64,000 nucleotides of DNA, from NCBI GenBank assembly GCA_041613315.1, contig JBFJHJ010000013.1:6932-70931 (forward strand), written 5' to 3'. This document shows positions 40,201-59,178 of the stretch, in pieces. The DNA is from Gemmatimonadales bacterium. Lineage in GTDB: Bacteria > Gemmatimonadota > Gemmatimonadetes > Gemmatimonadales > GWC2-71-9. The position numbers and the translations under genes were made by a program. Position 1 is the first letter of the stretch. Every line of letters begins with the position of its first letter. The notes below the pieces were generated by a model. That model did not search any database. It had not been told where the DNA came from and saw only the letters and a list, made by a program, of their open reading frames with translations.

Positions 40201-40208
40201 GAACGGGT

Positions 40209-42023: not shown

Positions 42024-42024
42024 C

Positions 42025-42606: not shown

Positions 42607-42926
42607 TGGACGGGGCGATGGACCAGCAGCGAGAACATCACGAGTCGGCGCATCCCAGCACGGCGACCTACGTCGTCATCGCGGCGATCCTCACGGTCAT
42701 CACGCTGGTGGAGGTGGGCGTGTTCTACGTACCGGCGTTCAAGCCGGTACTGGCGCCGATTCTCCTCGTGCTGTCGGCGGGCAAGTTCGCGCTCGTGGTC
42801 ATGTTCTACATGCATCTGAAGTCGGACCACCGGTTATTCACGCTGCTCTTCTCCCTGCCGCTCCTTATCGCTCTCGGGGTGGCCCTGGCGCTGCTGTTCC
42901 TGTTCGGCGTGTTCGTGTCGGGGTGA
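42606..42926 (+). CDS. coxD: Cytochrome c oxidase subunit IV family protein
   Basis: 3 TM, KFALVVMFYMHLK; TAATG overlap (alternative ATG 42618). Confidence 0.88.
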   Translation: MDGAMDQQREHHESAHPSTATYVVIAAILTVITLVEVGVFYVPAFKPVLAPILLVLSAGKFALVVMFYMHLKSDHRLFTLLFSLPLLIALGVALALLFLFGVFVSG

Positions 42927-43012: not shown

Positions 43013-43594
43013 TCAGCTAGCGGGTGGCTCCCGCAGGTCAGGGGTCGGCTCGCGGTACGCATCCACATGCTCGCCCGCGGCCTCGTCGAGCGGCTCGCCC
43101 AGCGGGTGGGCCAACAGCTCCTCGCGGATCTTGGGGTGCATCCGCCACAGGTAATAGCCCATGCCAAACGCCGCAATCGCGTTGCCGATCGCGACGTTCC
43201 ACCAGGTGAGCGCGCCGAGGAGGGGCTGCGCCACGACGGCCAGCAGGATGTAAAAGCCCACCTCGAAGATCGCGAAGAAGACGACGACGATGTACAACGT
43301 GGACGGGAACAGCTCGATCTCGTACGCGAGGGCGGCCGCAATCACGCCCACCGCGACGAAGGCGACCACATGGACCATCGTGTAGCCGATGACGGTGGCG
43401 AAAACCTGTTCACCCGTCGGGAAGATCGCGCCCACCTGGGCCGGATCCCGCAGACCCCAGAAGAGCGCGGCGCCGAGCATCTTCGGGGTGAAGAATGGCT
43501 GCCCGTTGACGGTGTCGACAACGAGAAACCACAGGGCCACGGCGGCCGCACCGATGAGTCCGGCCACGAAGCCCTCCCGAAGGATCCGTTGCAT
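43013..43594 (-). CDS. Hypothetical membrane protein (about 4 TM)
   Basis: Hydrophobic helices, YTMVHVVAF; GGGGGA RBS. Confidence 0.7.
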   Translation of the reverse strand: MQRILREGFVAGLIGAAAVALWFLVVDTVNGQPFFTPKMLGAALFWGLRDPAQVGAIFPTGEQVFATVIGYTMVHVVAFVAVGVIAAALAYEIELFPSTLYIVVVFFAIFEVGFYILLAVVAQPLLGALTWWNVAIGNAIAAFGMGYYLWRMHPKIREELLAHPLGEPLDEAAGEHVDAYREPTPDLREPPAS

Positions 43595-43698
43595 CAGTCC
43601 CCCTTGCACGGGCGGTCGGCACCCAATATAGGGACTCGTGCCCGCCTGGCGAGTCCCGATTGCGGCGCATCGGCATTCTCACTCAAATTACGGGACGC

Positions 43699-44082
43699 AT
43701 GACCCGCGACCTCAAGTTCCGTCAGGCGGCATTGGTGTACCTGCACGTCGGCATCCTCTACGAGGGCGCCGTCGTGGCCATGTGGCAGCGGGGTCTGCTC
43801 TTTCCGCACGGCCCGCCATGGATGCGGGCGATCCCGCCCTGGGGGTGGATGCTCATCGGAGCAGCCATCGTCGCGGTGGTCGTGTGGGGGCTGTGGACGT
43901 GGCAGAACGTCTGGTTCGCCCGCGCCGTGTGGTTCATCGGCAGCCTTCGCGTCCCCACGTTGCTGGCGGGGGCGTTCTTTCCGCGGCCGGAGCACGTGCT
44001 GAGCCCCGCGTTCTACGGAACCGCGCTCGCCGTCGTGCTCATCAACCTCTGGATGCTCGCCCGCGCGGCATGGGACGTATGA
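43699..44082 (+). CDS. Hypothetical membrane protein (about 4 TM)
   Basis: AALVYLHVGILYE; ATGA overlap with the Mrp gene. Confidence 0.7.
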   Translation: MTRDLKFRQAALVYLHVGILYEGAVVAMWQRGLLFPHGPPWMRAIPPWGWMLIGAAIVAVVVWGLWTWQNVWFARAVWFIGSLRVPTLLAGAFFPRPEHVLSPAFYGTALAVVLINLWMLARAAWDV

Positions 44083-44978
44083 CGCCGGATTTCCGCACCT
44101 ATCATGACGTGACAGGGGACGATCGCTCCGGCCTGCTCGAGCAAGTGGGGCGCCAGCGGGAGCGCGTACGCGCCCGCCTCGCCGACGTGAGCCGCGTGGT
44201 GGCCGTCATGAGCGGTAAGGGCGGCGTTGGCAAGAGTCACGTCACCGCTGGCCTCGCCTACGCCGTGGCGACACGGGGGGAGGGCGCCGTCGGCGTTCTG
44301 GATGCGGACCTCCAGGCCCCGACGGCGGCCCGCCTGCTTGATGCCCGCGGTCCGGTACGCGTGGGAGACGACGGCGCCGAGCCGGTGATGGGTGCGGGTG
44401 GCGTGCGGGTGTTCTCGATGGACCTCCTGCTGGCGGAGGGACAGCCGTTGCGCTGGCGCGAGCCGGAGTCGGAGCGATTCGTGTGGCGTGGCACGCTCGA
44501 GACGGGCGCGCTCCGTGAGTTTCTGAGCGACGTCCGGTGGGGTGCCCTGGAAGTGCTGCTCATCGATCTGCCGCCCGGAGCCGCGCACCTCGCCGACCTC
44601 AAGTCGCTGGTGCCGGCCCTGACCGGCGCCGTCGCCGTCACGATCCCGAGTGAGGAATCCCGGCGGGCGGTGGAGCGCGCCATTCGCGCGGCCGGGGACG
44701 CGGGCATCCGGCTCCTGGGCGTGGTGGAGAACCTGAGCGGGTACGCCTGTGCCGGGTGCGACTCGACCCAGCCGCTGTTCCCAGGTGACGCCGGTGCGTC
44801 GCTCGCGCGCGCTTTCGGAGCGCCGTTGCTTGGCCGGATCCCCTTTACTCCCGCGCCGCCGCCGGCAGACGAAAGCGGTCGGGTGTGGCCGCCGCCGCCC
44901 GCGCGTTCCGCCGCCGTGGCGGTTCCTCCCGTTGTGCCGTCCTCGCTGGTGGACGCGTTTCTCGAGGCCCTGTCATGA
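44079..44978 (+). CDS. Mrp/NBP35-family P-loop ATPase (Fe-S carrier-like)
   Basis: MSGKGGVGKS, LDADL, WRG, IDLPPG, VENLSGYACAGC. Confidence 0.9.
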   Translation: MTPDFRTYHDVTGDDRSGLLEQVGRQRERVRARLADVSRVVAVMSGKGGVGKSHVTAGLAYAVATRGEGAVGVLDADLQAPTAARLLDARGPVRVGDDGAEPVMGAGGVRVFSMDLLLAEGQPLRWREPESERFVWRGTLETGALREFLSDVRWGALEVLLIDLPPGAAHLADLKSLVPALTGAVAVTIPSEESRRAVERAIRAAGDAGIRLLGVVENLSGYACAGCDSTQPLFPGDAGASLARAFGAPLLGRIPFTPAPPPADESGRVWPPPPARSAAVAVPPVVPSSLVDAFLEALS

Positions 44979-45415
44979 AATTCCTTTGCGTCGACTGCGA
45001 CGAGCGGATGCACTTCGAGGAGCGCGACGTTCCGGGCGACGGGACGTTCGCCGCGGCGTTCACCTGTCCCCGGTGCGGGCGGCGCATCGCGCTCCTCGCC
45101 AACCCCATGGAGACGCAGCTCGTCGAATCGCTCGGCGTGCAGATCGGCGGCCGGCGGCTCGACGAGCAGCCCCTCGAGCTCGTCCGGCAGCGGGTGGTGG
45201 GCCGCGAAGACGCTTTCGAGGATGCCGAACGGCCGCCCCGCGGCCGGCCCGCATGGAGCCCCGAGGCACGCGAGCGCCTCGGCCGCGTGCCGAATTTCGT
45301 GCGGGGCATGGTGCAGAAGATCTACGCCGAATACGCCGCTGAGCGCGGGATCGCCGAGATCACACCTGGCGTGATGGATCAGGCGCGTCAGGAGCTGGGA
45401 CTGGAGGGGATGTAA
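44975..45415 (+). CDS. Zn-ribbon (CxxC..CxxC) plus PCP_red-like domain protein
   Basis: CVDC, CPRC; WSPEARERLGRVPNFVRGMVQKIYAEYAAERGIAEIT. Confidence 0.8.
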   Translation: MKFLCVDCDERMHFEERDVPGDGTFAAAFTCPRCGRRIALLANPMETQLVESLGVQIGGRRLDEQPLELVRQRVVGREDAFEDAERPPRGRPAWSPEARERLGRVPNFVRGMVQKIYAEYAAERGIAEITPGVMDQARQELGLEGM

Positions 45416-45658
45416 GTGCCGGACGTTGAGCAGCGGGCCGTCGGCGGCCTGAGCGTGCGGATCGACCGCACGCTCTGCGTGGGCTTCGGGGACTGCATCA
45501 CGGAAGCGCCGGAGGCCTTCGCGCTGGACGGCGAGGGGATCGCCGTGTTCCTCGCTCCCGAGGCTGTCGATCGCGAGCGGTTGCTCCGCGCGTGCGACGC
45601 GTGTCCCGTGGACGCGCTCACGGTGGTGGACGACGGAGGCCGGCAACTCGTCCCTTGA
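45416..45658 (+). CDS. Single-cluster ferredoxin, probably [3Fe-4S]-type
   Basis: IDRTLCVGFGDC...ACDACPVDAL; second Cys of CxxCxxC replaced by Phe. Confidence 0.85.
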   Translation: MPDVEQRAVGGLSVRIDRTLCVGFGDCITEAPEAFALDGEGIAVFLAPEAVDRERLLRACDACPVDALTVVDDGGRQLVP

Positions 45659-45683
45659 CACACCCGCCAGGGGGTCCCATACT
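45655..45683 (+). promoter_or_regulatory. Sigma-70-type promoter upstream of the USP gene
   Basis: TTGACA - 17 nt - CATACT; the -35 overlaps the ferredoxin stop codon. Confidence 0.7.
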
Positions 45684-45832
45684 CGCCCCGAGCGTAGGGG
45701 AAAAAGGCGCCGCTGACGGATTCTCGGTGGGGAAGCAGCCGGCAACCGGCGTGGCACCCGCCGTCGTCGTGATACAGAGATCGCCAGATCTGTTGCCTTC
45801 CGAACACGACCATCCGGGCCGGAGGCCGTGCT

Positions 45833-47833
45833 GTGTATAGGGAAATCTTCGTTCCCGTCGATAACTCCCAGCATTCCAATTGGGCCGTCGACCGCGCGAT
45901 CGAGATCGCGGCCACCACCGGGGGTTACATCACCGGGAATCACGTGTATGCCGCCCGTCTGCACGACATACGGTTCCGCCAGTTGGAGACCGGGCTCCCC
46001 GCCCGATTCCAGACGCCCGAGGAGATCAAGCGCCAGCGCAAGGTGCACGACAAGCTGATCGAGAAAGGCCTCCAGTTGATTTCGGACTCGTTCCTCGACC
46101 AGGTCGAGCTGCGCGCGGCGCGGGCGGGCGCGCCGCTGCGCCGGCAGCTGCTCGAAGGCATCAACTATGAGGAGATCGTCCGTGAGGTGAACCGGGGCGA
46201 GGGCACTCTGCCGAGCCTCATCGGCTTCGATCCGAACATCGCGGCGAGCTATGACGGCGGCGCCACGGTGCGGAGCGACGTGCGGTTGGGGGCCGATGGG
46301 CGCATCGTCGGCGAGGACGAAGATCAGGCGGACAAGGTCGCCGGTACGTCGGGGCGGCGCTACGACCTGATCGTCATCGGCGCACACGGTATCGGCCGTC
46401 AGCCCTACTCCCAGCTGGGCGGCGTCGTCGGTCGGGTGGCCCGCGGCGTCGAGAAGGACATGCTCCTGGTGCGCGACGACCGCCCGCTGGCGGGCGGCAC
46501 CCTTATGGTGTGCGTGGACGGGTCCTCATACAGCTACAAGGCGATGCGCGAGGCACTGGAGCTCGCCCGCCGCTTCGGCTCGTCGCTGTACGTGTGCAGC
46601 GCCTTCGACGTGGAGTACCACCACGCGGTGTTCCACAACATCAAGGACGTCCTGTCGGTCAAGGCCTCGAAGGTGTTCAAGTTCGAGGAGCAGGAAGAGC
46701 TGCACAACAACATCATCGACAAGGGTCTGCTCAAGCTCTCCCAGGCAAACCTCAAGCGGGCCGAAGTGATGGCGCAGGAGTTCCCCGACGTCCCGCTCAC
46801 GACGCAAATCCTCATCGGCAAACCGTTCCAGGTGATCCTCCAGTGGGTCGAGGAGGTCCGTCCATCGCTTCTCGTGATCGCACGGCACGGCGCGCACCGC
46901 ATCGAAGGGACCGAAATGGGGTCGCAGGCCGAGAATCTGATCCGCCTTGCGCCCTGCAACATGCTGGTCGTCGGCACGCAGGCCGTCCGTCCTGAAGAGA
47001 TTCCGTGGATCGAGGAGGACGGCGAGGCCGGACTTCCCTGGGCGCCCGAGGCGGAGGTCCGCATTCTCCGGGTGCCGCCGTTCGCCCAGGGGATCGCGCG
47101 CCGGGCGGTGGAGGAATACACGGCGGAGCACGGTGGCGACGTGGTGACCAACCCATGGCTGGACCAGGCGATCCAGAAGCTTCTCCCGACCCACATGCAG
47201 CTCATCATGGGCATCGGCGATGCCGAAGAAGTCGCCCGGGCCGAGGTGAAGGCCGAAGAGCAGATGGCGAAGACGGTGGTGCGCGGGAGCGACCGTGACC
47301 AGGAGGCGGGGGGCGCAACCCTCGAGGTCCGCTGTCCCGTGACCGGCCACGTCACCACGCGGCCGCGAACGGCGGCCGACCAGCCGGTATGGACCCGGGA
47401 GGCGTTCGAGCGTCTGACGGTGGTGCCGCTCATCGCCCGGCCCCTCGCCCGCATGACCGTCGAGCGATTCGCGCGGCAGCACGATGTCTGGCGGATCACC
47501 ACGAGCGTGATGGATGAGAACAAGCAGGCCATGATCGAGGCGGACGAGTTCGACGCCGAGACCATGATGGGCATGTTCCGCGAGCTGCGGGCCAAGCAGA
47601 TCCGGGCGGAGGCCGAGGGTCGCGACGCTTTATCGCCGGAGATGCGTCAATTCATCGAGGAGGCGAAGCGCGCCGGGGTCACACGCTGCCCGATCCGTGA
47701 CCTCGAGGATCGCAGTATCGACGAGCAGATGGCCGCCTGTCCGGTGGACTTCAAGCTGGCGACCCCCGCCGACGCGAAGGCGGCCGTCGAGCGCGTGCTC
47801 TCTCAGGAGACGGAGGAGGAGCCGGAGCCGTGA
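45833..47833 (+). CDS. Tandem universal-stress-protein domains fused to two PCP_red-like domains and a Cys-Pro tail
   Basis: IFVPVDNS, DLIVIGAHG, MVCVDGS, MGSQAENLIRLAPCNMLVV; WAPEAEVRILRVPPF and WTREAFERLTVVPL; CPV, CPI, CPV. Confidence 0.85.
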   Translation: MYREIFVPVDNSQHSNWAVDRAIEIAATTGGYITGNHVYAARLHDIRFRQLETGLPARFQTPEEIKRQRKVHDKLIEKGLQLISDSFLDQVELRAARAGAPLRRQLLEGINYEEIVREVNRGEGTLPSLIGFDPNIAASYDGGATVRSDVRLGADGRIVGEDEDQADKVAGTSGRRYDLIVIGAHGIGRQPYSQLGGVVGRVARGVEKDMLLVRDDRPLAGGTLMVCVDGSSYSYKAMREALELARRFGSSLYVCSAFDVEYHHAVFHNIKDVLSVKASKVFKFEEQEELHNNIIDKGLLKLSQANLKRAEVMAQEFPDVPLTTQILIGKPFQVILQWVEEVRPSLLVIARHGAHRIEGTEMGSQAENLIRLAPCNMLVVGTQAVRPEEIPWIEEDGEAGLPWAPEAEVRILRVPPFAQGIARRAVEEYTAEHGGDVVTNPWLDQAIQKLLPTHMQLIMGIGDAEEVARAEVKAEEQMAKTVVRGSDRDQEAGGATLEVRCPVTGHVTTRPRTAADQPVWTREAFERLTVVPLIARPLARMTVERFARQHDVWRITTSVMDENKQAMIEADEFDAETMMGMFRELRAKQIRAEAEGRDALSPEMRQFIEEAKRAGVTRCPIRDLEDRSIDEQMAACPVDFKLATPADAKAAVERVLSQETEEEPEP

Positions 47834-49164
47834 GGCGTTCGGCCGTGGCGCTGCTGGGGGAGTCGCCGGCGCGCGCGACTCCCGGCGCTGAGCCCGTGCC
47901 ACACGTGGTCGCGTGGAACCTCACGCGCCGGTGCAACCTGGAGTGTGCCCACTGTTATATCGCGGCGGGGCCACAGGAGTCGGCAACGGACGAGCTGACC
48001 ACCCGGGAATGCCTCCGCATCGCAGACGAGATTCTCGCCCTCAACCCCGCGCCGATGTTCATCCTCTCGGGCGGCGAGCCGCTGTTGCGCGAGGACCTGA
48101 CCACCATCGCGGCGCATGCCAGCAGACGGGGGGCGACCGTCGTCGTGGGCACCAACGGTACGCTGCTGACGGATGACCGCATCGCCGCGCTGTGCGATGC
48201 CGGGGTAAGCGGCGTCGCGGTCAGCGTGGAGTCGCTGGACCCGTCGTACCACGATCGCTTCCGCCGCGGGCACGGCTCGCTCGCCGCGACGCGCGCGGCG
48301 GTGAAGCGCCTCGGCGTGCGCGGCGTGGACGTGGTGATCCAGACGACGATTACCAAGCACAACCGCGACGAGCTCCGACCGCTGGTGGCATGGGCGGCGG
48401 ATCAGGGCGCCGTCGCCTTCAATGCGTATTTCCTCGTGGCCACGGGACGCGGCGCCCGCATGAGCGGCCTCACCCCGGAAGGCTACGAAGCCGTGCTCGA
48501 GGAGTTGGTGGACCTGCACCAGACCTACCTCGGCCGATTGATGGTCCGGGCGAAATGCGCACCACAGTTCATGCGGCTGGTCCACCGCCGCATCCCCGAC
48601 TCCCCGATCCTCAACTATGCGACGCGGTGCCCCTGCGGCGTGCAGTACTGCCGGGTGACGCCGGACGGACAGGTGACGGCCTGCCCGTACCTGCCGCTGC
48701 CAGCGGGCGACTTGCGGACCCAGTCGTTTGCCGAGGTGTGGCGCGCCTCGCCGCTGTTCCGCGACCTGCGGCAGGGCACGCTGGGGGGGAAGTGCGGCAC
48801 CTGTGAGTATCGCCGGCTCTGCGGCGGCTGCCGGGCGCGTGCTTTCGCCACGGACGGCGATCCCCTCGGAGCGGATCCGTCGTGCGCGTACGAGCCGTCC
48901 GGCGACGTCCCGGTGATCGAGCCGGCGCGCGCCGTCACCTACGGGATGCCGGCCGTCCCAACCCTCCGCTGGACACCGGAAGCGGAAGCGCGCCTGCAAC
49001 GCATCCCGTCGTTTGTGCGCGGGGTGGTGGTCCGGCGGCTCGAGGACTACGCCCGTCGCGAGGGGAAGTCGGAGGTGACCGTCGACCTGATGGACGAGGT
49101 GCGGAAGACCATGCCGGTGGATTTCTCGAAACGCCTGCCGTTCTTCGCGCGCCATGACCGCTGA
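47830..49164 (+). CDS. Radical SAM/SPASM protein, AhbD/NirJ heme-biosynthesis-like, with C-terminal PCP_red-like domain
   Basis: VAWNLTRRCNLECAHC, SGGEP, KCAPQF, SPASM GKCGTCEYRRLCGGCRARA..DPSC; WTPEAEARLQRIPSFVRG. Confidence 0.88.
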   Translation: MRRSAVALLGESPARATPGAEPVPHVVAWNLTRRCNLECAHCYIAAGPQESATDELTTRECLRIADEILALNPAPMFILSGGEPLLREDLTTIAAHASRRGATVVVGTNGTLLTDDRIAALCDAGVSGVAVSVESLDPSYHDRFRRGHGSLAATRAAVKRLGVRGVDVVIQTTITKHNRDELRPLVAWAADQGAVAFNAYFLVATGRGARMSGLTPEGYEAVLEELVDLHQTYLGRLMVRAKCAPQFMRLVHRRIPDSPILNYATRCPCGVQYCRVTPDGQVTACPYLPLPAGDLRTQSFAEVWRASPLFRDLRQGTLGGKCGTCEYRRLCGGCRARAFATDGDPLGADPSCAYEPSGDVPVIEPARAVTYGMPAVPTLRWTPEAEARLQRIPSFVRGVVVRRLEDYARREGKSEVTVDLMDEVRKTMPVDFSKRLPFFARHDR

Positions 49165-50845
49165 CCTGACATTCCTGCTCCAGGCGGCGGCCGACACCGC
49201 GGGCGCCTACGGACACTTCCCCGGCGTCGGCGCGCGCGGCGCCGTGTGGATCGCCGCGGAAGTGCATCTCATGTTCGCGGCGTTCGTGCTTGGCGTGCCG
49301 ATGTTCGCGGTGATCACCGAGCTCATCGGCATCGTCACCAAGGACCCGAAGTACGACACGCTGTCCAAGGAGTTCACCCGGCTCCTGGTCTTCGCCTACA
49401 GCGCCACGGCGTTGTGGGGCGCGGTGCTCGTCTTCTTTCTGACGACGCTGTACCCGCGGTTCTGGAACCACATGACGGAGATCTTTCACCTGTCCATGTG
49501 GATCTACGTCGGAGTGTTCTTCGTCGAGTCCTTCACGCTCTACCTCTATTACTACGGGTGGGACCGCTGGAAGGCGGGACGGGCGAAGCTCGGCCATTGG
49601 GGGCTGGGCGTGCTGCTGAACGTGTGGGGCACCATCGTGATGTTCATCGCGAACGGGTGGCTCACGTACATGATGTCGCCGCCCTCCGGAGCCACGCCCC
49701 AGGGCCTCCCGCCCGAGGTGAGCCTCTGGAATGCGATCGCCAACGCGACGTGGATGCCGATCAACATCCATCGGCTGATCGGGAATGCGGTCTTCGGCGG
49801 GACGATCGTGGCGGCCTACGCGGGCTACCGCTTCCTCTCGGCGAAGACCGACGAGGAGCGGGCCCATTACGACTGGATGGGCTACGTCGGCAACTTCATC
49901 GCGATTTCGACGTTCATCGTGCTGCCCTTCGCGGGCTACTACCTGGGCCGGGAGATCTACGAGTACAACCAACAGATGGGCATCACCATGATGGGCGGCT
50001 TCATGAGCTGGCTGTGGATCGTGCAGGCCGTGCTCATCGGCGTGCTGTTTCTGGCCGCGAATTACTACCTGTGGATCGGCATGGGGCGCATTCCGGGAGC
50101 GGAACGATTCATGCCGTATACGAAGTGGATGCTGCTCGTCCTCGTAGTCGGCTGGCTGGTGTGGGCGACGCCGCACACCATGATCGCCAGTCGTGAAGAG
50201 CTGGCCGCCATGGGCGGATCGCACCACCCCTTCCTCGACGTCCTGGGGGTGATGAGCGCGAAGAACACGGCCGTCAACCTCATGATCCTCACGACGTTCT
50301 TGTCGTTCCTCCTGTACCGCCGCGCCAACAAGCGGCCCGTGGTGCCGTGGGCCAGGAGCGGCACGATCGTCCAGAGCGCCATGTTCGGCATCGCCGTGGC
50401 GGTCGTCGTGGGGTACGGCATCGCGGGGTACTTCGTCCCCGACATCGTGCGGATCGGGTACAGTGTCTATCAGGTCCTGACCGTGCTGGCGTGTATCATC
50501 GGCGTCACGGTGGTCGATCTGGCGCTGGTGCGCGGCGCGGAATCCCGGGGGGCGATCCGCTGGGGACGAATGCCGGAGCGCTCGCAATACGCCCTCTTCG
50601 TCTTGGCCGTGACCTTCACGTGGCTCATGGGGTTGATGGGGTTCGCCCGCAGCGGGATCCGCCAACACTGGCACGTCTGGGAAGTCTTGCGCGACACCAG
50701 TCCGTTCGCCGCCACGCCCCCGCTCGGCGCGGCCGCTAACATGATCAGCGTCTGCGTCGTGATCTTTCTCGCGCTGGTGGCATTCATCTTCTGGCTGGGT
50801 GGCCTGGCCGAGAAAGCCGTGGCCAAGCCGGCAGCGAGGGCCTGA
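49154..50845 (+). CDS. Cytochrome bd subunit I-like (CydA-like) oxidoreductase lacking the Q-loop
   Basis: EVHLMFAAFVLG, FFVES..YYYGWDR, ANGW, NIHRLIG, ARSGIRQHW; about 13 TM. Confidence 0.85.
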   Translation: MTADLTFLLQAAADTAGAYGHFPGVGARGAVWIAAEVHLMFAAFVLGVPMFAVITELIGIVTKDPKYDTLSKEFTRLLVFAYSATALWGAVLVFFLTTLYPRFWNHMTEIFHLSMWIYVGVFFVESFTLYLYYYGWDRWKAGRAKLGHWGLGVLLNVWGTIVMFIANGWLTYMMSPPSGATPQGLPPEVSLWNAIANATWMPINIHRLIGNAVFGGTIVAAYAGYRFLSAKTDEERAHYDWMGYVGNFIAISTFIVLPFAGYYLGREIYEYNQQMGITMMGGFMSWLWIVQAVLIGVLFLAANYYLWIGMGRIPGAERFMPYTKWMLLVLVVGWLVWATPHTMIASREELAAMGGSHHPFLDVLGVMSAKNTAVNLMILTTFLSFLLYRRANKRPVVPWARSGTIVQSAMFGIAVAVVVGYGIAGYFVPDIVRIGYSVYQVLTVLACIIGVTVVDLALVRGAESRGAIRWGRMPERSQYALFVLAVTFTWLMGLMGFARSGIRQHWHVWEVLRDTSPFAATPPLGAAANMISVCVVIFLALVAFIFWLGGLAEKAVAKPAARA

Positions 50846-50849
50846 CGCC

Positions 50850-51641
50850 ATGTGGCTCACGAACCTGAAAGTGGGGGCCGTCGGGCTGCTGGTGATCCTG
50901 TTCTATACGGCCGTGGCCCACGTGATCCCGCAGCTGCAGTCGGAAGTGCCGCAAGCCGTGGCGCTCGGCGACGATGTGAGCCCTGCCGTGCTGGCCGCCA
51001 CCGGCGAACAGGTCTACAACGGTGCGGGGGGGTGCACCGCCTGTCACGGGCTGGGTACCCGCGCGCCCAACCTGCTCACCGACTACGCGGGGCAGGGACC
51101 CATCGGGGCGCGCTGCCAGCAGCGGCTCGATGCCGACTGTAAGCGCTACCTGCACGCGTCGCTGACGCACCCCGGTGACTCGGTCGTGCTGCCGTTCGCG
51201 AACATCATGCCCGACGTCGCCCGCCAGTTGGGCGACCCGCGCGCGGTGTGGGCCCTCGTGGCGTTCCTGCAAGCGCAGGGCGGTGAGATCACCGTGACGG
51301 CCGATGATGTCCAATCTGCCGCCGCCCGTGAAGCACCGGCGAGCGGGGGCGGCGAGGCGGTCGCCCGGTCGGCGACGATGGACCCGCGGCAGCTCCTCCA
51401 GGAGCACGCCTGTACGGGCTGTCACGCGATCGACGGGGCCGGACCTCCGATCGGGCCGTCCTTCGACGGCATCGGGTCCCGGATCTCCGCGAACCAGATC
51501 CGCCGCGGCATCCTCGATCCCGATGCAGAGGTCACCCGCGGGTTCGAACCGTTCGCAGGGATGATGCCCAAGACCTTCGGGCAGCAACTGTCGGCAGCCC
51601 AGCTGGAAGCGATCGTGCAATTCCTGGCGAACCGCAAGTGA
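50850..51641 (+). CDS. Membrane-anchored diheme cytochrome c
   Basis: N-terminal TM; CTACH..IMP and CTGCH..MMP. Confidence 0.9.
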   Translation: MWLTNLKVGAVGLLVILFYTAVAHVIPQLQSEVPQAVALGDDVSPAVLAATGEQVYNGAGGCTACHGLGTRAPNLLTDYAGQGPIGARCQQRLDADCKRYLHASLTHPGDSVVLPFANIMPDVARQLGDPRAVWALVAFLQAQGGEITVTADDVQSAAAREAPASGGGEAVARSATMDPRQLLQEHACTGCHAIDGAGPPIGPSFDGIGSRISANQIRRGILDPDAEVTRGFEPFAGMMPKTFGQQLSAAQLEAIVQFLANRK

Positions 51642-52450
51642 GCATCATGCATCAGGTCAAAGAAGCGCTCCGACATCCGTTCTGGCAGGCGGTACTGCTG
51701 CTGGTCGGGGCGTACGTGCTGTTCAAGTTCGGCGTCGCGTATCTGCCACCCGTGTTTGGCGTACCCAGCGCGCCGGTGCCCCGGAGCGTCCTGCTCCAGT
51801 ACATGCTCACGGCGCTCGTCGGCATCCTGATCTACGTGAGCGACAACGAAGAACGCTGGCGCCGGTTCAAGGCGCCGATCGCCGCCACTCTCGTCGACGC
51901 CGACAAGCGCTGGCTCCGGGGGGCGCTGCTCGTGCTCGGGCCGGCGCTGGTCGGGTTCGTCGCGTACGAACAGGTACGTCCCAAGGTGTCGGCGCCCGTC
52001 CAGCTCCGCTCGATACACCCGGCGCCGCCGGGGCAGATCACGTTCCGCGGTCAGACCATCGCGCTCGACACGCTGCAGAACCCGCTTCGGGCACGGGGCT
52101 CGCTCGAGGAGCACGTGGCGGCCGGCCGGCGCATCTACTATCAGAACTGTCTTCCCTGCCACGGTGACCTGCTGGACGGCCGGGGGCACTTCGGGCACGG
52201 CTTCAACCCCACGCCCCTCGCCTTCGACAAGGGGACCATCGCACAGCTGCGCGAGAGCTTCGTCTTCTGGCGGGTGGCGAAAGGGGGACCCGGCCTGCCG
52301 CGCGAAGGCGGGCCGTGGAACTCGGCCATGCCGGTGTGGGAGGACTTCCTCACAGCCGACGAGATCTGGGCCGTCGTGACCTTCATGTATGAGCAAGCGG
52401 GCGTGCAGCCACGCCAGCTCGGCGCGGGCGAGGGAGGGGGCCATGATTAG
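51638..52450 (+). CDS. Monoheme cytochrome c with about 3 N-terminal TM helices
   Basis: CLPCHG...SAMPVW. Confidence 0.9.
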   Translation: MSIMHQVKEALRHPFWQAVLLLVGAYVLFKFGVAYLPPVFGVPSAPVPRSVLLQYMLTALVGILIYVSDNEERWRRFKAPIAATLVDADKRWLRGALLVLGPALVGFVAYEQVRPKVSAPVQLRSIHPAPPGQITFRGQTIALDTLQNPLRARGSLEEHVAAGRRIYYQNCLPCHGDLLDGRGHFGHGFNPTPLAFDKGTIAQLRESFVFWRVAKGGPGLPREGGPWNSAMPVWEDFLTADEIWAVVTFMYEQAGVQPRQLGAGEGGGHD

Positions 52451-54062
52451 CCGGACCGGCGGCAGGGCGGTAGGGCGGTATGTCGCTCCGGTGACCAGAG
52501 CGGCCATCGCCCTGCTGACTCTTCTCGCTGCCGGACCGCCGCACCGCCTGACCGCCCAGGGGGAGGCGGGGGAGCCGGGCAAGGCGACCTACGACAAGTG
52601 GTGCGCCGAATGCCACGGCACGACCGGCGCCGGCGACGGAAGCGCCGCCCCGTTCATGCTGCCGAGGCCGCGCGACTTCACCCGTGCCCTGTACCAGATC
52701 CGCACGACGGCGAGCGGCGAGTTGCCGACGGACCGGGACATCCAGCGGGCGGTGGACGAGGGGATGCCGGGGACGGCGATGCCTGGGTGGAAAACGGAGC
52801 TCTCGGATCGGGAGCGGCGTGACGTCATCACGTACATCAAGGCCTTCTCGCGGTTCTTCGACGGCGCAGCACCCCAGCCCCTCGATTTCGGGAAGGCTCC
52901 GGGCCGATCGGCCGATGGGCTCGCCGAGGGCCGCCGCGTGTACGAGCAGCTCGAGTGCTTCAAGTGTCACGGGGACCAGGGCCGGGGGGACGGGCCGTCG
53001 GCGCCGACGCTGACGGATGACTGGGACCACCCCATCCGCGCGGCGAACCTGCACAAGCCGTGGACCTTCAACGGTGGCGGCACCGTGGAGCAGATTTACC
53101 GGCGCATCCGCACGGGCTTGGACGGCACGCCGATGCCGTCGTACTCCGACGCGCTTGCCGCGGGGCTGGTCACGGAGGAGCAGCTGTGGCGCGTCGCCCA
53201 GTATGTGCGGAGCTTGGGTCCCGAGGAATCTCCACCGCGCGTGCGCGACGTGTTCCGGGCGGTGCGGCTCGAGGGCGAGCTGCCGACGGGGCCGGACGAC
53301 GGTGCGTGGGCGGGGGTGGAAGGGTTCTACGTGCCGCTCGTCGGTCAAATCATCCGGAAGCCGCGGTGGTTCGCGCCCCGGGTGGACGCCGTCTGGGTCC
53401 AGGCCGTGCATGACGGACGGCGGCTGGCGCTGCGGCTCGCGTGGGACGACCCCTCGAAGAGCCCGGACCCGCTGTGGCAGGAGTCGACGGACCGGATGGC
53501 GGCCGCGGTGACCGATGTGGACGGCCCCGTGCCGACGGGACAGAGCGGCGATCGGTTCCATGTGCAGTTCCCGCTGCGGCTCACCGACGGGATGGAGCGG
53601 CCCTACTTCCTGGGTGGCGACGCGCGGCGGCCCGTGTACGATTGGCGCTGGTCGAGCGCACCCGATCGCCTGGAGGAGGGGACGGCGACGGGCCTCGACC
53701 GGTTCAATGCCGCCCCGGGCGGGCCGCAGGTGACGCACGCGGCCGTCTACGATCAGGGGCAATGGCGCCTGCAGCTCACGCGGGTGCTGGTGCCGGCGGA
53801 CTCGGCAGCTGCACTCACGTTCGTCGAAGGGCGGGCGATCCCGGTGGCGTTTTTCGCCGCGGACGGCAGTGACGGCGAGGTGGGCTTGCGCGGGTCGGTG
53901 AGCGCCTGGTACGCCGTCTATCTCGACGTGCCGACGCCCGTGTCGGCGTTCGTGACGCCGCTCGTGGCCGTGTTGCTTACGGCAGGCTTCGGTATCATGG
54001 TATTATGGAGAGCACAGCGGCGCGGCCGTGCGGCCGCGCGTCCTCACGCGGAGGGATCATGA
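52443..54062 (+). CDS. Diheme cytochrome c with EB_dh/DOMON-like domain and C-terminal TM anchor
   Basis: CAECH..GTAMP, CFKCH..GTPMP; VQAVHDG..LALRLAWDDP, GQWRLQLTR. Confidence 0.88.
   Translation: MISRTGGRAVGRYVAPVTRAAIALLTLLAAGPPHRLTAQGEAGEPGKATYDKWCAECHGTTGAGDGSAAPFMLPRPRDFTRALYQIRTTASGELPTDRDIQRAVDEGMPGTAMPGWKTELSDRERRDVITYIKAFSRFFDGAAPQPLDFGKAPGRSADGLAEGRRVYEQLECFKCHGDQGRGDGPSAPTLTDDWDHPIRAANLHKPWTFNGGGTVEQIYRRIRTGLDGTPMPSYSDALAAGLVTEEQLWRVAQYVRSLGPEESPPRVRDVFRAVRLEGELPTGPDDGAWAGVEGFYVPLVGQIIRKPRWFAPRVDAVWVQAVHDGRRLALRLAWDDPSKSPDPLWQESTDRMAAAVTDVDGPVPTGQSGDRFHVQFPLRLTDGMERPYFLGGDARRPVYDWRWSSAPDRLEEGTATGLDRFNAAPGGPQVTHAAVYDQGQWRLQLTRVLVPADSAAALTFVEGRAIPVAFFAADGSDGEVGLRGSVSAWYAVYLDVPTPVSAFVTPLVAVLLTAGFGIMVLWRAQRRGRAAARPHAEGS
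52458..52481 (+). repeat. Three tandem octamers inside a signal-peptide coding region
   Basis: ggcggcag ggcggtag ggcggtat; same unit as the array at 29504-29675. Confidence 0.6.
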
Positions 54063-54832
54063 GACGAGTCGTAGTGGCATCGGTCTGCATCGCATTCGGC
54101 GCGTTCGCTTGCGGTGGTGGAGAGAGTGGTGGCGGTGGGGGCGCGGGTACCGGCGGTGCAGCAGGTGGGCCGAGCGGCCCGATGGGCCAGGCCAGCGTCG
54201 CGGGGGTCGTGAACTTCCAGGGTACGGCGCCCGCCAATCCGACCATCGATATGGCCAAGGAACCGACGTGCCGCGACAAGTACTCGAGCGCGCCGAGGGA
54301 TCCGCAGGTGCTCGTCACCGATGGCAAGCTGGCGAACGTTTTCGTCTACGTGAAGAGCGGACTGCCGGCAGGAGCGAAGTATGCGGCGCCGGCGACCCCG
54401 GTGGAGCTGGACCAGGAGGGTTGCCTCTATCGTCCGCGGGTCTTCGGCGTAATGGTGAGCCAGACGGTCGCGATCAAGAACAGCGACGCGCTGATGCACA
54501 ACATCAAAGCCGTGCCTCACGAGAACCGCGGGTTCAACATCAGCCAGCCCACGGCGGGGATGACGACGACGCGGACGTTCAACACGCGCGAGATCATGGT
54601 CCCCTTCGAGTGCAACGTGCACGGCTGGATGCGCGCGTACGCGGGCGTCCTGGATCATCCGTTCTTCGCGACCTCGGCGCAGAACGGCACGTTCACGATC
54701 CCCCGGATGCCGGCGGGTACATACGAGCTGGAGGCGTGGCACGAGAAGTTCGGCACCCGGAGCGCGACGGTGACGGTGCCCGATACCGGAACGGTGCGCG
54801 TCGAGTTCCGGTTCAGCGCGTCGACGTCCTGA
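54059..54832 (+). CDS. Lipoprotein with cupredoxin-like domain inside a carboxypeptidase-regulatory-like fold
   Basis: AFAC lipobox, Gly linker; LDQEGC.YRP, MHNI...FECNVHGWM; PAGTYELEAWHE. Confidence 0.75.
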   Translation: MRRVVVASVCIAFGAFACGGGESGGGGGAGTGGAAGGPSGPMGQASVAGVVNFQGTAPANPTIDMAKEPTCRDKYSSAPRDPQVLVTDGKLANVFVYVKSGLPAGAKYAAPATPVELDQEGCLYRPRVFGVMVSQTVAIKNSDALMHNIKAVPHENRGFNISQPTAGMTTTRTFNTREIMVPFECNVHGWMRAYAGVLDHPFFATSAQNGTFTIPRMPAGTYELEAWHEKFGTRSATVTVPDTGTVRVEFRFSASTS

Positions 54833-54845
54833 CGGGAGACGGTGC

Positions 54846-55520
54846 ATGAACTGGCTTCTGCCGGGCGGCGTCTCGACGTTCGCCGGCGACATCGACCGCC
54901 TCTACTACGTGATCCTCGGCATCACGGGCGCGGCGTTCGTGATCGTCGAGGTCGCGCTGATCTGGTTCTTGATCAAGTACCGCGCCCGGCCGGGCCGGAA
55001 AGCGTATTACACGCACGGTAGCGTCAAGGCCGAGGTGATCTGGACGACGGTGCCGGCGGTGGTGGTGGTGATGATCGGCATTCTGAGCGGCGGAGTGTGG
55101 AACCAGATCCGGGGCCGCGACAGCGTGCCGCCGGGGGCGTTACCGCTGGCCGTGCACGCGAAGCAGTTCGAGTGGCTCGTCACCTATCCTGGTCCGGACG
55201 GCCAGCTCGGGACCGACGACGACTTCGAGCGGCGCAACGACCTGCGGCTCCCGGTGGACACGCCGATGGTGATCGCTCTGACCTCGGAGGACGTGATCCA
55301 TTCGTTCTTCATCCCGGAGTTCCGAGTGAAGCAGGACGTCGTGCCCGGCATGACGATCCGTGCCTGGTTCGAGGCCACCGCGACGGGTGAGTACTCGCTG
55401 GCCTGTGCCGAGCTCTGCGGGAACGGCCATACGACGATGGGCGGCACGGTGACCGTGCTGTCGCTGGACGAGTACACCCAGTGGCTCGCGGACCCGAGCC
55501 GAACCGTGGCTTCGCGGTAG
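54846..55520 (+). CDS. coxB: Cytochrome c oxidase subunit II, second copy (no fused cytochrome c)
   Basis: EVIWT, KQFEW, DVIHSFF, CAELCGNGHTTM. Confidence 0.95.
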   Translation: MNWLLPGGVSTFAGDIDRLYYVILGITGAAFVIVEVALIWFLIKYRARPGRKAYYTHGSVKAEVIWTTVPAVVVVMIGILSGGVWNQIRGRDSVPPGALPLAVHAKQFEWLVTYPGPDGQLGTDDDFERRNDLRLPVDTPMVIALTSEDVIHSFFIPEFRVKQDVVPGMTIRAWFEATATGEYSLACAELCGNGHTTMGGTVTVLSLDEYTQWLADPSRTVASR

Positions 55521-55532
55521 AGGAGCGCGCAC

Positions 55533-57293
55533 ATGGCGACGATGGCAGCGACGATCGATCACGCCCACGCCCACGTGGACGATCGGTCGTTCCTCCGCAA
55601 GTACATCTTTTCGACCGACCACAAGATCATCGGGATTCAGTTCCTCATGTTGAGCTTGCTGTTCCTGCTGATCGGCGGCCTGCTCGCGATGATGATGCGG
55701 TGGGAGCTGGGCTTCCCGACGCAGCCGATGCCCGGCGGCACCCTGTTGCCGGAGACGATGGCGCCGGGCGGGATTCTCCTGCCGGAGTTCTACAACTCCC
55801 TCGTCACCATGCACGGCACGTTCATGGTGTTCTTCGCGATCATGCCGCTCTTGGTGGGCGTCTTCGCGAACTACTTGATCCCGCTCAAGCTCGGCGCGCC
55901 GGACATGGCGTTCCCCCGGTTGAACATGGCGTCGTTCTGGATCGCCGTGCCGGCCGGGGTCCTCATGCTCGCGGGCTTCTTCGTCGAGGGCGGCGCCGCC
56001 GGTGCCGGGTGGACGTCATACGCGCCGCTCAGCGCCAACGCCGAGTACTCCGGCGTGAGCTTGGGGCAAGAGCTCTGGTGTCTCAGTCTCGTCGTGTTGG
56101 GGCTCTCGTCAATCCTGGGCGCCACGAACTACATCACGACGGTGATCAACATGCGGGCGCCCGGGATGACCTGGTTCCGCATGCCGCTCTCGATCTGGTC
56201 GCTGTTCATCACCGCGATCCTGACGCTCCTCGCGATCCCGATTCTGTCGGGAGCGGCGATTATGCTGCTCTTCGATCAGACGATCGGGACGACCTTCTTC
56301 CTGCCGGCGGAGGGCGGGCAGCCGCTGCTGTGGCAGCACCTGTTCTGGTTCTTCGGGCACCCGGAGGTCTACATCCTCATCCTGCCGGCGATGGGCATGG
56401 TGTCGGACATCATCGCCAATGGCGCGCGCAAGCCGATCTTCGGCTATCACTCGATGGTCTACGCGATCATCGGGATCGGCTTCCTGGGCTGGATCGTGTG
56501 GGGGCACCACATGTTCCAGAGCGGGATGAACCCGACGCTCGGTACGACCTTCATGATCTCGACCATGCTGATCGCCGTCCCGTCGGCCATCAAGACGTTC
56601 AACTGGCTGGGGACCCTGTGGCGCGGCAACATCCGGCTCCACGTGCCGATGCTGCACGCGTGCGCCTTCGTGGCGATGTTCGTCATCGGCGGATTGAGCG
56701 GTGTGTACATGGCGTCGACGCCGGTCGACATCTACATCCACGACACGTACTTCATCGTGGCGCACCTGCATTACGTGCTGTTCGGCGGCAGCCTCTTCGC
56801 CCTATTCGGGGCCATCACGTTCTGGTACCCCAAGATGTTCGGCCGGATGATGAACCCGCTCTTGGGGAAGGCGCACTTCTGGCTGACGTTCCTGTTCTAC
56901 AACCTCACTTTCTTCCCGATGCACGAACTGGGGCTGCAGGGCCACATGCGTCGGATCTACGACCCGACACAGTATGCCTTCCTCCAGCACCTGCAGCCGC
57001 TCAACGAGTTCATCACGCTGAGCGCATTCCTGCTGTTCGCGGTACAGCTCATCTTCGCCGTGAACTTCATCATGAGCTGGTGGAATGGGAAGAAGGCGTC
57101 GCCGAACCCGTGGGAAGACACCGGCCTCGAGTGGAGCACGCCGTCGCCGCCGCCGCACGGCAATTGGCCGGAGACGCCGACGGTGCACCATGCGCCGTAC
57201 GAATTCAGCTCGCCGCTCGTGCAGGAGGACTACCTGATGCAGAACCGGAAGGTCGAGGGTGCGCCGGCGGCCGCGGCGTCCCGCACCGAGTGA
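55533..57293 (+). CDS. coxA: Cytochrome c oxidase subunit I, second copy, A1-type
   Basis: STDHKIIG, PDMAFPRLN, FGHPEVY, WGHH, PSAIK, HLHY, MRR. Confidence 0.97.
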   Translation: MATMAATIDHAHAHVDDRSFLRKYIFSTDHKIIGIQFLMLSLLFLLIGGLLAMMMRWELGFPTQPMPGGTLLPETMAPGGILLPEFYNSLVTMHGTFMVFFAIMPLLVGVFANYLIPLKLGAPDMAFPRLNMASFWIAVPAGVLMLAGFFVEGGAAGAGWTSYAPLSANAEYSGVSLGQELWCLSLVVLGLSSILGATNYITTVINMRAPGMTWFRMPLSIWSLFITAILTLLAIPILSGAAIMLLFDQTIGTTFFLPAEGGQPLLWQHLFWFFGHPEVYILILPAMGMVSDIIANGARKPIFGYHSMVYAIIGIGFLGWIVWGHHMFQSGMNPTLGTTFMISTMLIAVPSAIKTFNWLGTLWRGNIRLHVPMLHACAFVAMFVIGGLSGVYMASTPVDIYIHDTYFIVAHLHYVLFGGSLFALFGAITFWYPKMFGRMMNPLLGKAHFWLTFLFYNLTFFPMHELGLQGHMRRIYDPTQYAFLQHLQPLNEFITLSAFLLFAVQLIFAVNFIMSWWNGKKASPNPWEDTGLEWSTPSPPPHGNWPETPTVHHAPYEFSSPLVQEDYLMQNRKVEGAPAAAASRTE

Positions 57294-57304
57294 GCGAGGG
57301 GGGT

Positions 57305-57982
57305 ATGGCACACGCCGCAGTGATGCGCCCGCCCGCCCCGGCCGAACCGGGCGCCGGGGTCTATAACGCGAAGCTCGGGATGTGGGTTTTCCTGGGCTCA
57401 GAGGTGATGTTCTTCACGGCCCTCATCGGGTCGTACATCATTCTCCGTTTTGGGAACGAACAGTATTGGGCTCAGCCGGCGCAGATCCTGAACGTCCCGA
57501 TCACGGCGTTCAATACGTTCTGGCTCATTTGCTCCAGCGTCACGATGGTGAAGGCCTTTGCGGCCGCTCAGGACGGTAACCAGAAGGCGCTTCGTGGTTG
57601 GCTCGTCGCGACGGTCGTGATCGGCGCCATGTTCGTGGGCATTCAGGCCTACGAGTACGCCCAGCTGATCCATCTTGGGTTCCTGCCGAGCGGCTATCGA
57701 GCGGGGAGCGAGCTGGCTGAGGCCGCCGCGGCCGGAACGCCCTACCACGGGAGCGCCCTCCCCGCGTCCGTGAGCCTGTACGGCGCCACGTTCTACACCA
57801 TGACCGGGTTCCATGGCTTCCACGTGACGATGGGCGTCATCTGCATGGCGTTCGTCACGTGGAAGGCGTTCCGAGGAAGCTACACCGCCACCGATCATCG
57901 GGGCGTCGAGGTGATCGGGCTATACTGGCACTTCGTGGATCTGGTGTGGATCATTCTGTTCACCATCGTCTACCTGATCTGA
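57305..57982 (+). CDS. coxC: Cytochrome c oxidase subunit III, second copy, intact
   Basis: FLGSEVMFF, TGFHGFHV, GLYWHFVDLVW; C-terminal part of track ORF 55481..57982. Confidence 0.93.
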   Translation: MAHAAVMRPPAPAEPGAGVYNAKLGMWVFLGSEVMFFTALIGSYIILRFGNEQYWAQPAQILNVPITAFNTFWLICSSVTMVKAFAAAQDGNQKALRGWLVATVVIGAMFVGIQAYEYAQLIHLGFLPSGYRAGSELAEAAAAGTPYHGSALPASVSLYGATFYTMTGFHGFHVTMGVICMAFVTWKAFRGSYTATDHRGVEVIGLYWHFVDLVWIILFTIVYLI

Positions 57983-58033
57983 CGCCTGCAGGGCCGCGGC
58001 CCTGAGCCAACGACCCGCGCGGAGGCCGACGCG

Positions 58034-58315
58034 ATGGAGCAGACCGAGCACGCCAAACACCCGCCGTACGTGGGCATCTTTGCCGCGCTGGCGGTGCTGA
58101 CCGCCTTGGAACTGGGCGTCGCCTTCTTCGAGAACTGGCCGAAACGGGTGATCATCCTCGTCCTCGTCTTCCTGGCCATCTGGAAGGCGCTTCTGGTGGC
58201 GTTGTACTACATGCACCTGCGGTTCGAGCCCAACCGCCTCCGAATCCTCGCCCTGGCGCCACTGCCCCTCGCCGTGATCCTGGTGATCGCCGTGATCACC
58301 GAATACGTGTGGTAA
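58034..58315 (+). CDS. coxD: Cytochrome c oxidase subunit IV family protein
   Basis: 3 TM, KALLVALYYMHLRFE; GGAGG RBS. Confidence 0.88.
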   Translation: MEQTEHAKHPPYVGIFAALAVLTALELGVAFFENWPKRVIILVLVFLAIWKALLVALYYMHLRFEPNRLRILALAPLPLAVILVIAVITEYVW

Positions 58316-59178
58316 CCCTCGCCCTCACCCGCTCCCGCCTCGCCGACTACGTCGAGCTCACGAAGCCGGGGATCGTCACCCTGGTCCTCGTGACCGTCGC
58401 GGCGGGGTTCTATCTGAGCGCAAGCGCGATCACGGGGCTGCTCCTGTTCCACACGCTGTTGGGCGCGACGCTCGTTGCCGCCGGCAGCAACGCGCTGAAT
58501 CAAGTCGTGGAACGGGACGTCGACGCTCTGATGGATCGCACGCGCACCCGGCCACTGCCGGCCGGTCGGCTGGGGGTCGGCGAAGCCGCGGTGCTGGGCG
58601 CTGGGCTAAGTACGGCGGGCATCGCCTACCTCATGGCGTTCGTCAACGGGATCACGGCCGCGTTCGCGGCGGCCACCCTGGCGAGCTACGTGTTCCTCTA
58701 CACGCCCCTCAAGCGTCGCACGTCGCTCGCCACGCTCGTCGGCGCCGTGTCCGGCGCCCTCCCCATCGTGGGAGGCTGGGCGGCCGCGCGGGGTACGGTC
58801 GATTTTCCGGCCTGGGTGCTGTTCGCGCTCCTCTTCCTCTGGCAGCTGCCGCACTTTCTGGCATTGGCGTGGCTCTATCGCGACGACTACGCGCGGGCGG
58901 GCCTGCGTATGCTGAGTGTGACGGATGGGGCGGACGCCAACTTCCGCCAGGCGTTGCTCTACGCCGTGGCGTTGCTGCCCGTGAGCCTGGCGCCGAGCGT
59001 CGTGGGGACCACCGGGCGCGTGTACTTCTTCGGGGCGCTCGTGCTGTCCCTGTGGCTGATTGGGGCGACCGTCGTCGCCGCCCGGCGTCCCACGCGGCCG
59101 GCGGCGCGACGGTTGTTCGGCGTCAGCGTGGCGTACCTCCCTGCCGTCCTCGTCCTGATGATGGCGGACAAGGTCTAG
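58309..59178 (+). CDS. ctaB: Protoheme IX farnesyltransferase (heme O synthase)
   Basis: ELTKPGI, NQVVERDVDALMDRTRTRPLP, YTPLKR, WQLPHF, DDYARAG. Confidence 0.95.
   Translation: MVTLALTRSRLADYVELTKPGIVTLVLVTVAAGFYLSASAITGLLLFHTLLGATLVAAGSNALNQVVERDVDALMDRTRTRPLPAGRLGVGEAAVLGAGLSTAGIAYLMAFVNGITAAFAAATLASYVFLYTPLKRRTSLATLVGAVSGALPIVGGWAAARGTVDFPAWVLFALLFLWQLPHFLALAWLYRDDYARAGLRMLSVTDGADANFRQALLYAVALLPVSLAPSVVGTTGRVYFFGALVLSLWLIGATVVAARRPTRPAARRLFGVSVAYLPAVLVLMMADKV

Follow-up and report, generated by a model that had tools for sequence, protein, structure and literature searches.

The open reading frame at 49154..50845 of a 64,000-nucleotide stretch of a Gemmatimonadales genome (contig JBFJHJ010000013.1, positions 6,932 to 70,931; the whole stretch is called the window) starts with ATG and encodes a protein of 563 residues with 13 predicted membrane helices. 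The frame, the operon that contains it and the accessory genes upstream lie on the forward strand. Judged by its sequence, the protein is an OR-N2 (NIDE0901-like) bd-like subunit of the cytochrome bd superfamily, a family that has already been published. The evidence leans towards its being the haem b-containing catalytic subunit of an oxygen reductase that is fed by cytochrome c and lacks the residues of the quinol site. Neither the residue map given below nor the placement of the inserted helices was found in the literature searched, although the Tyr, Gln and Met replacements may already be listed elsewhere in print.

OR-N proteins have been described as CydA homologues without a quinol site, of which N1 and N2 were assigned 14 helices; His19 is reported to be kept in all paralogues, and N2 to occur often without a second CydA (10.1101/2021.01.16.426971). 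The trait that defines OR-N is an alternative electron donor (10.1101/2021.01.16.426971; PMC3578206). Murali et al. placed the O2 site in helices 1–4 and described CydAA', a member with b haems only, as active (10.1101/2021.01.16.426971). Lücker et al. 2013 reported 14 helices, conserved haem b ligands and the loss of all quinol-binding residues (PMC3578206). NIDE0901 is an OR-N2 protein of a family still called uncharacterised, though presumed to be the terminal oxidase of Nitrospira, and the Nitrospira enzyme has been proposed to be a pair of N1 and N2 (PMC12342949, PMC10839748). Proposals for haem and copper ligands, and the gene module, are discussed in 10.1101/2020.06.09.141952, PMC5029188, 10.1101/2021.11.15.468770 and 10.1101/2020.07.02.185504. 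The literature search found no report of OR-N from Gemmatimonadota and no biochemical study of it, and 11 supplements of PMC12342949 gave no hit for OR-N1, OR-N2 or four NIDE tags.

The protein matches the Pfam family PF01654 above the cut-off (E 3.3e-18). At least 7640 homologues were found at E<=1e-10 among 7997 scored candidates; the best 120 listed are 83–87% identical to the protein, the query itself aside, and the nearest named relatives are Gemmatimonadota. The AlphaFold2 model, built on an alignment of 94 sequences, has a pLDDT of 89.8 and contains 13 long membrane-type helices, in agreement with the count of about 13 in a first-pass annotation made from the sequence of the window. VIA alignments of the model with solved CydA chains gave Z 32–35 and root-mean-square deviations of 3.5–4.0 over 342–360 residues, and all ten Foldseek hits at E<=0.001 were CydA. 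No solved structure of the subfamily of the query was found by sequence search. The model also matches ActF and ActC of alternative complex III (Z 19–23) and the polysulfide reductase PsrC (Z 14.5).

The Pfam match, the CydA fold and the equivalence of His38 to E. coli His19 in the first four-helix bundle place the protein in the cytochrome bd superfamily. The replacement of the quinol-site residues Lys252 and Glu257 by Met275 and Met280, and the cytochrome c donors encoded in the operon, assign it to OR-N. It has no CxxCH haem c motif, which sets it apart from OR-C, and it falls outside qOR (CydAB), as it has no Lys252/Glu257, Glu99, Met393 or Glu445 and no adjacent CydB gene. The 13 helices of the model agree with the about 14 of OR-N1 and OR-N2: relatives have one extra N-terminal hydrophobic segment, and the query has 13 because this signal-like segment is missing.

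The assignment to N2 is based on comparison with Nitrospira. Metagenome loci found with a protein named Nitrospira sp. have the gene order bd-like_1, cytochrome c, Rieske protein, cytochrome b and bd-like_2, after which come two cytochromes c and a protein similar to the gamma subunit of ethylbenzene dehydrogenase (EBDH-gamma). This is the gene order described for Nitrospira (PMC6606698), so the second CydA-like gene was taken as bd-like_2. The query scores 611 bits against the profile of Nitrospira-type bd-like_2 proteins, to which it is 47–51% identical, and 354 bits against that of bd-like_1 (36–39% identity). Of 617 confirmed genome loci, the best 80 were used to count gene neighbourhoods, and all 80 score closer to bd-like_2 than to bd-like_1. 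In phylogenetic trees the query groups with Gemmatimonadota, beside Methylomirabilota and Rokubacteria; the base of the trees and the relations of N1 and N2 are not resolved, and a constrained clade of the query and Nitrospira bd-like_2 was neither recovered nor rejected (p-AU, from the approximately unbiased test, 0.364).

Residues of the haem pockets and the quinol site

The residues of the query were mapped by aligning a profile of 63 family sequences with one of 31 canonical CydA sequences, of which five were partial pieces, with the role of E. coli His19 and the ligand numbers taken from PMC8324918 and PMC6853902. All motifs quoted in the first-pass annotation are present: EVHLMF (residues 36–41), WIYVG (116–120), FFVES (122–126), LGHW (146–149), NIHRL (204–208), YNQQMGITMMGG (271–282), TPH (339–341), SHHP (356–359) and ARSGIRQHWH (498–507). 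Conservation was counted in 174 N2-type sequences. They come from loci of Gemmatimonadota (56) and of other phyla (24), from Nitrospira-type bd-like_2 proteins (79) and from near-full-length representatives chosen by hand (15). The set excludes fragments and six degenerate representatives (P0149, P0150, P0162, P0173, P0256 and P0266).

Three functional residues of CydA are retained, as had been proposed. His38 (49265..49267) corresponds to His19, the axial ligand of the central haem, which is haem d in E. coli; Glu125 (49526..49528) to Glu107 of the proton path; and His206 (49769..49771) to His186, a ligand of haem b558. Position 38 is His in 170 of the 174 sequences (three gaps, one Lys), and Glu125 is kept in 173. 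The proposed equivalence of His148 (49595..49597) to His126 is less certain, with the register off by about one turn: the histidine is invariant, but its match requires a four-residue insertion before it and a three-residue deletion after it, and it is out of register in two other alignments. The RQxW motif is retained in part. Arg503 and Trp506, at the positions of Arg448 and Trp451, are conserved, whereas the Gln is Val in Nitrospira-type proteins.

The Q-loop is cut to about 12 residues (YNQQMGITMMGG, residues 271–282, 49964..49999), which form a short periplasmic loop. The match of helix 6 is gapless and places Met275 at Lys252 and Met280 at Glu257; the quinol-binding pair has thus been replaced by a short segment, as the first-pass annotation had claimed.

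Three of the five canonical axial positions are altered. Tyr118 (49505..49507), seven residues ahead of Glu125, occupies the position of Glu99 on the distal side of the central haem, in a region already noted to have no Glu. The second change, which was absent from the earlier residue list, affects Met393, the second ligand of haem b558; its position in helix 7 is predicted to be taken by Gln291 (50024..50026). The VIA end-points pair residue 313 with 415 in 6rko and with 368 in 7d5i, and the end-point offsets put the methionine that ligates b558 at 291, judged by E. coli Met393 and M. smegmatis Met346, or at 290, judged by Geobacillus Met325. Trp307 corresponds to Trp409 in a gapless match, so Met393 maps to Gln291. 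This placement derives from alignment end-points rather than from residue-by-residue superposition. Met367, which shows an HP-x7-M pattern, and Leu442, suggested by low-confidence hhalign columns, were considered as Met393 equivalents and rejected because the match of a model of residues 1–395 to CydA ends at 312–313.

The third change is in the segment formed by the end of helix 12 and the following hairpin (50627..50674), which contains Met492, Met495, Arg499, Ser500, Arg503, His505, Trp506 and His507. In the gapless register, anchored by Trp506 at Trp451 and by helix length, Ser500 occupies the position of Glu445. The register of helix 12 is ambiguous, as hhalign and phmmer introduce a six-residue gap that brings Leu494 to this position. 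The stretch from residue 476 to 509 contains neither Asp nor Glu, which means that no register supplies an equivalent of Glu445; the earlier reading of a lost Glu stands, and that of a Ser in its place applies to the gapless register. The alignment therefore yielded neither an intact Lys/Glu pair of the Q-loop nor an equivalent of Glu445.

Tyr118, His148, His206, Met280, Gln291, Met367, Met492, Met495, Arg499, Ser500, Arg503 and His507 are present in all 174 sequences, and His358 in 173. The near-complete conservation of the changed residues indicates that the rewiring is a trait of the family and is not specific to the frame at 49154..50845.

Catalase-like sites typically have a tyrosine close to the haem. 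Together with the gene for a universal stress protein (Usp) upstream and the NO- and O2-protective roles of canonical bd enzymes (PMC10839748), Tyr118 could suggest that the haem at His38 handles NO, peroxide or another small ligand in detoxification or sensing, and not respiratory O2. This is improbable. The multi-cytochrome wiring of the operon, and the high expression reported under nitrite oxidation (PMC6606698), suit respiration, and no NO-metabolism genes were among the neighbours identified, although no search was aimed at them.

The first-pass annotation had also pointed to extra histidines and inferred a different set of haems or metals. Among the five extra histidines, positions 341 and 357 are His in 140 of the 174 sequences each and position 505 in 159; once the 79 closely related Nitrospira-type rows are set aside, this leaves 61/95, 61/95 and 80/95. 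Because these three vary, only His358 and His507 are candidates for essential ligands. The inferred change of the haem or metal set is thus partly supported: the three altered axial positions and the near-invariant His358, His507, Met280, Met367, Met492 and Met495 agree with it, but three of the five extra histidines vary among orthologues.

The same histidines probably underlie a proposal made for NIDE0901, in which the protein would be a convergent haem-copper oxidase, with a CuB-like copper bound by His341, His357 and His358 and haems bound by His505 and His507. All five are present in the query and in 79/79 Nitrospira-type bd-like_2 proteins, and one Nitrospira variant was described as having all haem and copper ligands of haem-copper oxidases, others having Gln and Phe at two of them (10.1101/2020.06.09.141952). 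In homologue P0157 position 357 is Gln and position 505 is Phe, so the extra histidines are probably the proposed ligands. Their variability, which outside the Nitrospira-type set includes Arg at position 341 in 22 of 24 non-Gemmatimonadota loci, weakens the case for a CuB site of the haem-copper type, and the fold is that of CydA and not of a haem-copper oxidase (best rows Z 6.5–6.9). The reading as a convergent haem-copper oxidase is very unlikely.

The four-helix insertion and CydB

The extra helices were located by folding residues 1–395 separately and aligning this model to structures. In nine of ten CydA rows the match stops at residues 312–313, equivalent to E. coli 414–415 at the end of helix 7; the remaining row, 9r2g_A, ends at 392=359. 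It follows that query helix 7 (residues 284–312) is CydA helix 7 and the Q-loop is simply short, and that helices 8–11 (about residues 315–467, 50096..50554) form an insertion in the cytoplasmic loop between CydA helices 7 and 8. A location of the extra helices inside the Q-loop was rejected, since the match runs to the end of helix 7; the mapping for the query protein does not support the placement by Lücker et al. 2013 of three extra helices in the Q-loop (PMC3578206). His341, His357, His358 and Met367 lie in the loop that joins helices 8 and 9, which the topology places in the periplasm. Apart from generic helical bundles (Z about 8 or less), nothing matched the inserted helices. A mutual-information contact analysis was uninformative, as the effective number of sequences was 69 and gap effects dominated.

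CydB contacts helices 2, 3 and 9 of CydA (PMC6853902). The insertion is in the loop between helices 7 and 8, so the earlier suggestion that the extra helices stand in for CydB finds no support. A CydB profile of 31 sequences gave no match in the 80 loci or in the host genome, which is 83% complete, a limit shared by all genome-wide negatives given here. In homologues P0121 and P0135 the subunit is fused to the downstream cytochrome c directly after its last helix, and P0125 carries a C-terminal haem c domain. As the insertion starts elsewhere and the fused cytochrome c helix follows the equivalent of helix 9, CydB is more plausibly replaced by the anchors of the cytochromes or by a second copy. 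The membrane helices of the cytochromes c, rather than the inserted helices, would most probably occupy the face covered by CydB.

Electron supply and function

Three cytochrome genes follow the frame. The first (50850..51641) encodes a membrane-anchored dihaem cytochrome c, the one fused to the C-terminus of OR-N2 in some homologues, and the second (51638..52450) a monohaem cytochrome c with a hydrophobic N-terminal domain of, by eye, about three membrane helices. The product of the third (52443..54062) is a dihaem cytochrome c fused to an EBDH-gamma-like haem b domain of the alternative-NxrC type, with a hydrophobic C-terminal segment. Counted anywhere within a locus, and with loci of sufficient flank as denominators here and below, they occur in 70/70, 66/66 and 60/60 loci. 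The conservation of these genes and the natural fusions agree with the different electron donor inferred in the first-pass annotation, which is the published hallmark of OR-N.

A cytochrome c-fed O2 reductase is favoured because the protein retains the His19 site and Glu107, because its partners are cytochromes c, and because some aerobic Nitrospirales are reported to lack any other oxygen reductase; three cultivated Nitrospirales are described as having none besides the OR-N1/N2 type (PMC12342949). The CydA fold, the near-invariant His38, Glu125 and His206, the constant cytochrome partners and fusions, and genes of an alternative complex III-type module on contig C30 of the host are consistent with this function. 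Electrons would pass from the alternative complex III of the genome to the periplasmic dihaem c/haem b protein and the two membrane cytochromes c, and would enter the subunit at the b558-equivalent site, where His206 may be paired with Gln291 or with one of Met280, Met492 and Met495. Transfer to the His38 haem could proceed via a third site, at which His507 and His358 may replace Glu445. O2 would bind to this haem on the side now lined by Tyr118, and protons would be drawn through Glu125 from the cytoplasmic side, so that charge would be separated as it is in cytochrome bd.

Several observations weigh against this function. Glu99, Met393 and Glu445 are all changed, and the literature search found no published measurement of four-electron O2 reduction by OR-N. 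The host genome encodes three haem-copper oxidase subunits I, two of A-type in the window and a divergent ba3-like one on contig C5, and one of the sets is in the same operon, so a fourth O2 reductase would be redundant. Related bd-like proteins are reported from anaerobic anammox bacteria (PMC3578206). A pair of N1 and N2 has been proposed for Nitrospira, yet a second CydA-like gene was found in only one of the 80 loci, and the frame at 49154..50845 is the only CydA-like gene found in the host.

Genes downstream of the cytochromes raise the alternative that the subunit is an electron conduit to a co-encoded aa3 oxidase, with Tyr118 closing the central haem as sixth ligand. A predicted lipoprotein (54059..54832; 54/59 loci) has a type-1 copper motif (His147, Cys185, His188, Met191) kept in 54/54 homologues, under the sole Pfam label "carboxypeptidase regulatory-like". 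It is followed by aa3-type coxB, A, C and D and a UbiA-family prenyltransferase gene, haem O synthase-like, in the same apparent operon (54846..59178; coxA in 48/56 loci), with gaps of -7 to 51 bp. From the Usp gene through the prenyltransferase gene, neighbours overlap or abut (gaps of -11 to 51 bp). This linkage to the cupredoxin and cox genes and the invariant Tyr at the distal position fit a conduit, a role that Lücker et al. 2013 proposed if quinone can bind (PMC3578206). The likeness to ActF and ActC also fits but does not discriminate, since canonical CydA is expected to share it. The subunit has no recognisable quinol-site residues, however, and a conduit would duplicate the alternative complex III-type genes already in the genome. 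Moreover, 8 of the 56 loci with sufficient flank gave no cox hit, and the gene adjoins a Rieske/cytochrome b pair in long Nitrospira-type loci, with no coxA hit. A conduit is the main alternative, though a rather unlikely one.

The cytochrome c-fed reductase can be specified further, as a tentative joint proposal that is more doubtful than likely. OR-N2 would be a single-CydA, cytochrome c-driven oxygen reductase with re-liganded haem pockets: a Tyr-lined O2 site at His38, an entry haem held by His206 and Gln291 or by His or Met from helix 12, and a site of His507 and His358 that, with the inserted four-helix bundle, replaces Glu445. A modified haem might possibly be supplied by the co-encoded NirJ/AhbD-like radical SAM enzyme.

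Neighbouring genes, host genome and known systems

The genes at 44085..49164 encode a Mrp/NUBPL ATPase, a PCP_red protein, a ferredoxin, a Usp-PCP_red protein and a NirJ/AhbD-like radical SAM-PCP_red protein, and it is possible that they form a cofactor maturation set. The three PCP_red domains belong to the products of the genes at 44975, 45833 (Usp) and 47830 (radical SAM), the last of which was found in 56/74 loci. The set is found with the OR-N2 module in Gemmatimonadota, in one locus of NC10 and in several of Acidobacteriota, but not in the Rokubacteria loci. Of two small membrane proteins encoded at 43013–44082, neither of which has a Pfam or NCBIfam match, the second occurs with the cluster in many Gemmatimonadota loci. 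The module is flanked by two distinct A-type cytochrome c oxidase sets (39151–42926 and 54846–59178); their subunits I are about 46% identical, and the former set has haem c fused to subunit II. A sigma-70-like site matching at 10 of 12 positions is present at 45655–45683, in the 174-bp gap before the Usp gene, but the number of such sites is not above chance. Promoter and terminator scans showed no excess over shuffled sequences (2 versus 1.3 and 9 versus 6.4).

The OR-N2 gene was found in 42 of 151 sampled Gemmatimonadota genomes, including the host. The module is present in genomes of Gemmatimonadota, Methylomirabilota, Rokubacteria, Acidobacteriota and Myxococcota, and is therefore not tied to nitrite-oxidiser lineages. 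A second, more distant OR-N paralogue (50–53%) was observed in the Myxococcota locus L067 and in three of the 42 positive Gemmatimonadota genomes (G058, G084, G125). In the host (G000), the ba3-like oxidase (C5:16285–18440) and the alternative complex III-type operon (C30:17114–24429) were labelled by eye from motifs. The host genome yielded no cytochrome b of a bc complex, and none of its molybdenum-enzyme matches is Nar- or NXR-like by eye. One molybdopterin enzyme match (C10:60592–61860, L192) has an in-frame TGA and is possibly a selenocysteine formate dehydrogenase.

The residue map singles out Tyr118, Gln291, Met280, Met492, Met495, His358 and His507 as positions to mutate, whereas the histidines that have probably been proposed as CuB ligands are not all conserved. 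If a single CydA-like subunit is sufficient, the Gemmatimonadota operon would, for want of an N1 partner, be the simplest form to express and test.

Among known systems, the query is compared first with the OR-N2 protein bd-like_2 of Nitrospira, a proposed terminal oxidase from a highly transcribed region of N. moscoviensis, where two canonical bd oxidases are weakly expressed on nitrite (PMC6606698). Both lack the quinol-site Lys/Glu and CydB, keep His19, often have no second CydA-like gene and precede two cytochromes c and an EBDH-gamma-type protein; the invariant residues are common to the query and the 79 Nitrospira-type proteins. The query differs in having 13 helices instead of 14, in combining the dihaem c and haem b domains in one gene, and in lacking an N1 partner or adjoining Rieske/cytochrome b genes. 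It is flanked instead by the cupredoxin, the aa3 oxidase and the radical SAM/PCP_red set.

The bd-like_3/alt_NxrC_2 cluster of Nitrospira, Nitrospina and anammox bacteria, of the TO_1-type module of Ca. Manganitrophus, is described with the same module composition, in which a bd-like protein is accompanied by two cytochromes c and by a dihaem alternative NxrC anchored in the membrane. The description gives bd-like_3 Gln and Phe at two of the His positions, whereas the query has His at both. The clade of P0141, P0157 and relatives, 31–39% identical to the query, fits this description and is probably bd-like_3.

The canonical qOR subunits I of E. coli bd-I, Geobacillus and Mycobacterium have in common with the query the nine-helix CydA fold and the His19, Glu107, His186, Arg448 and Trp451 positions. 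The query differs from them in its Q-loop of about 12 residues, in the replacements of Lys252 and Glu257 by Met, Glu99 by Tyr, Met393 by Gln and Glu445 by Ser, in having no CydB that could be found, and in the four-helix insertion between helices 7 and 8.

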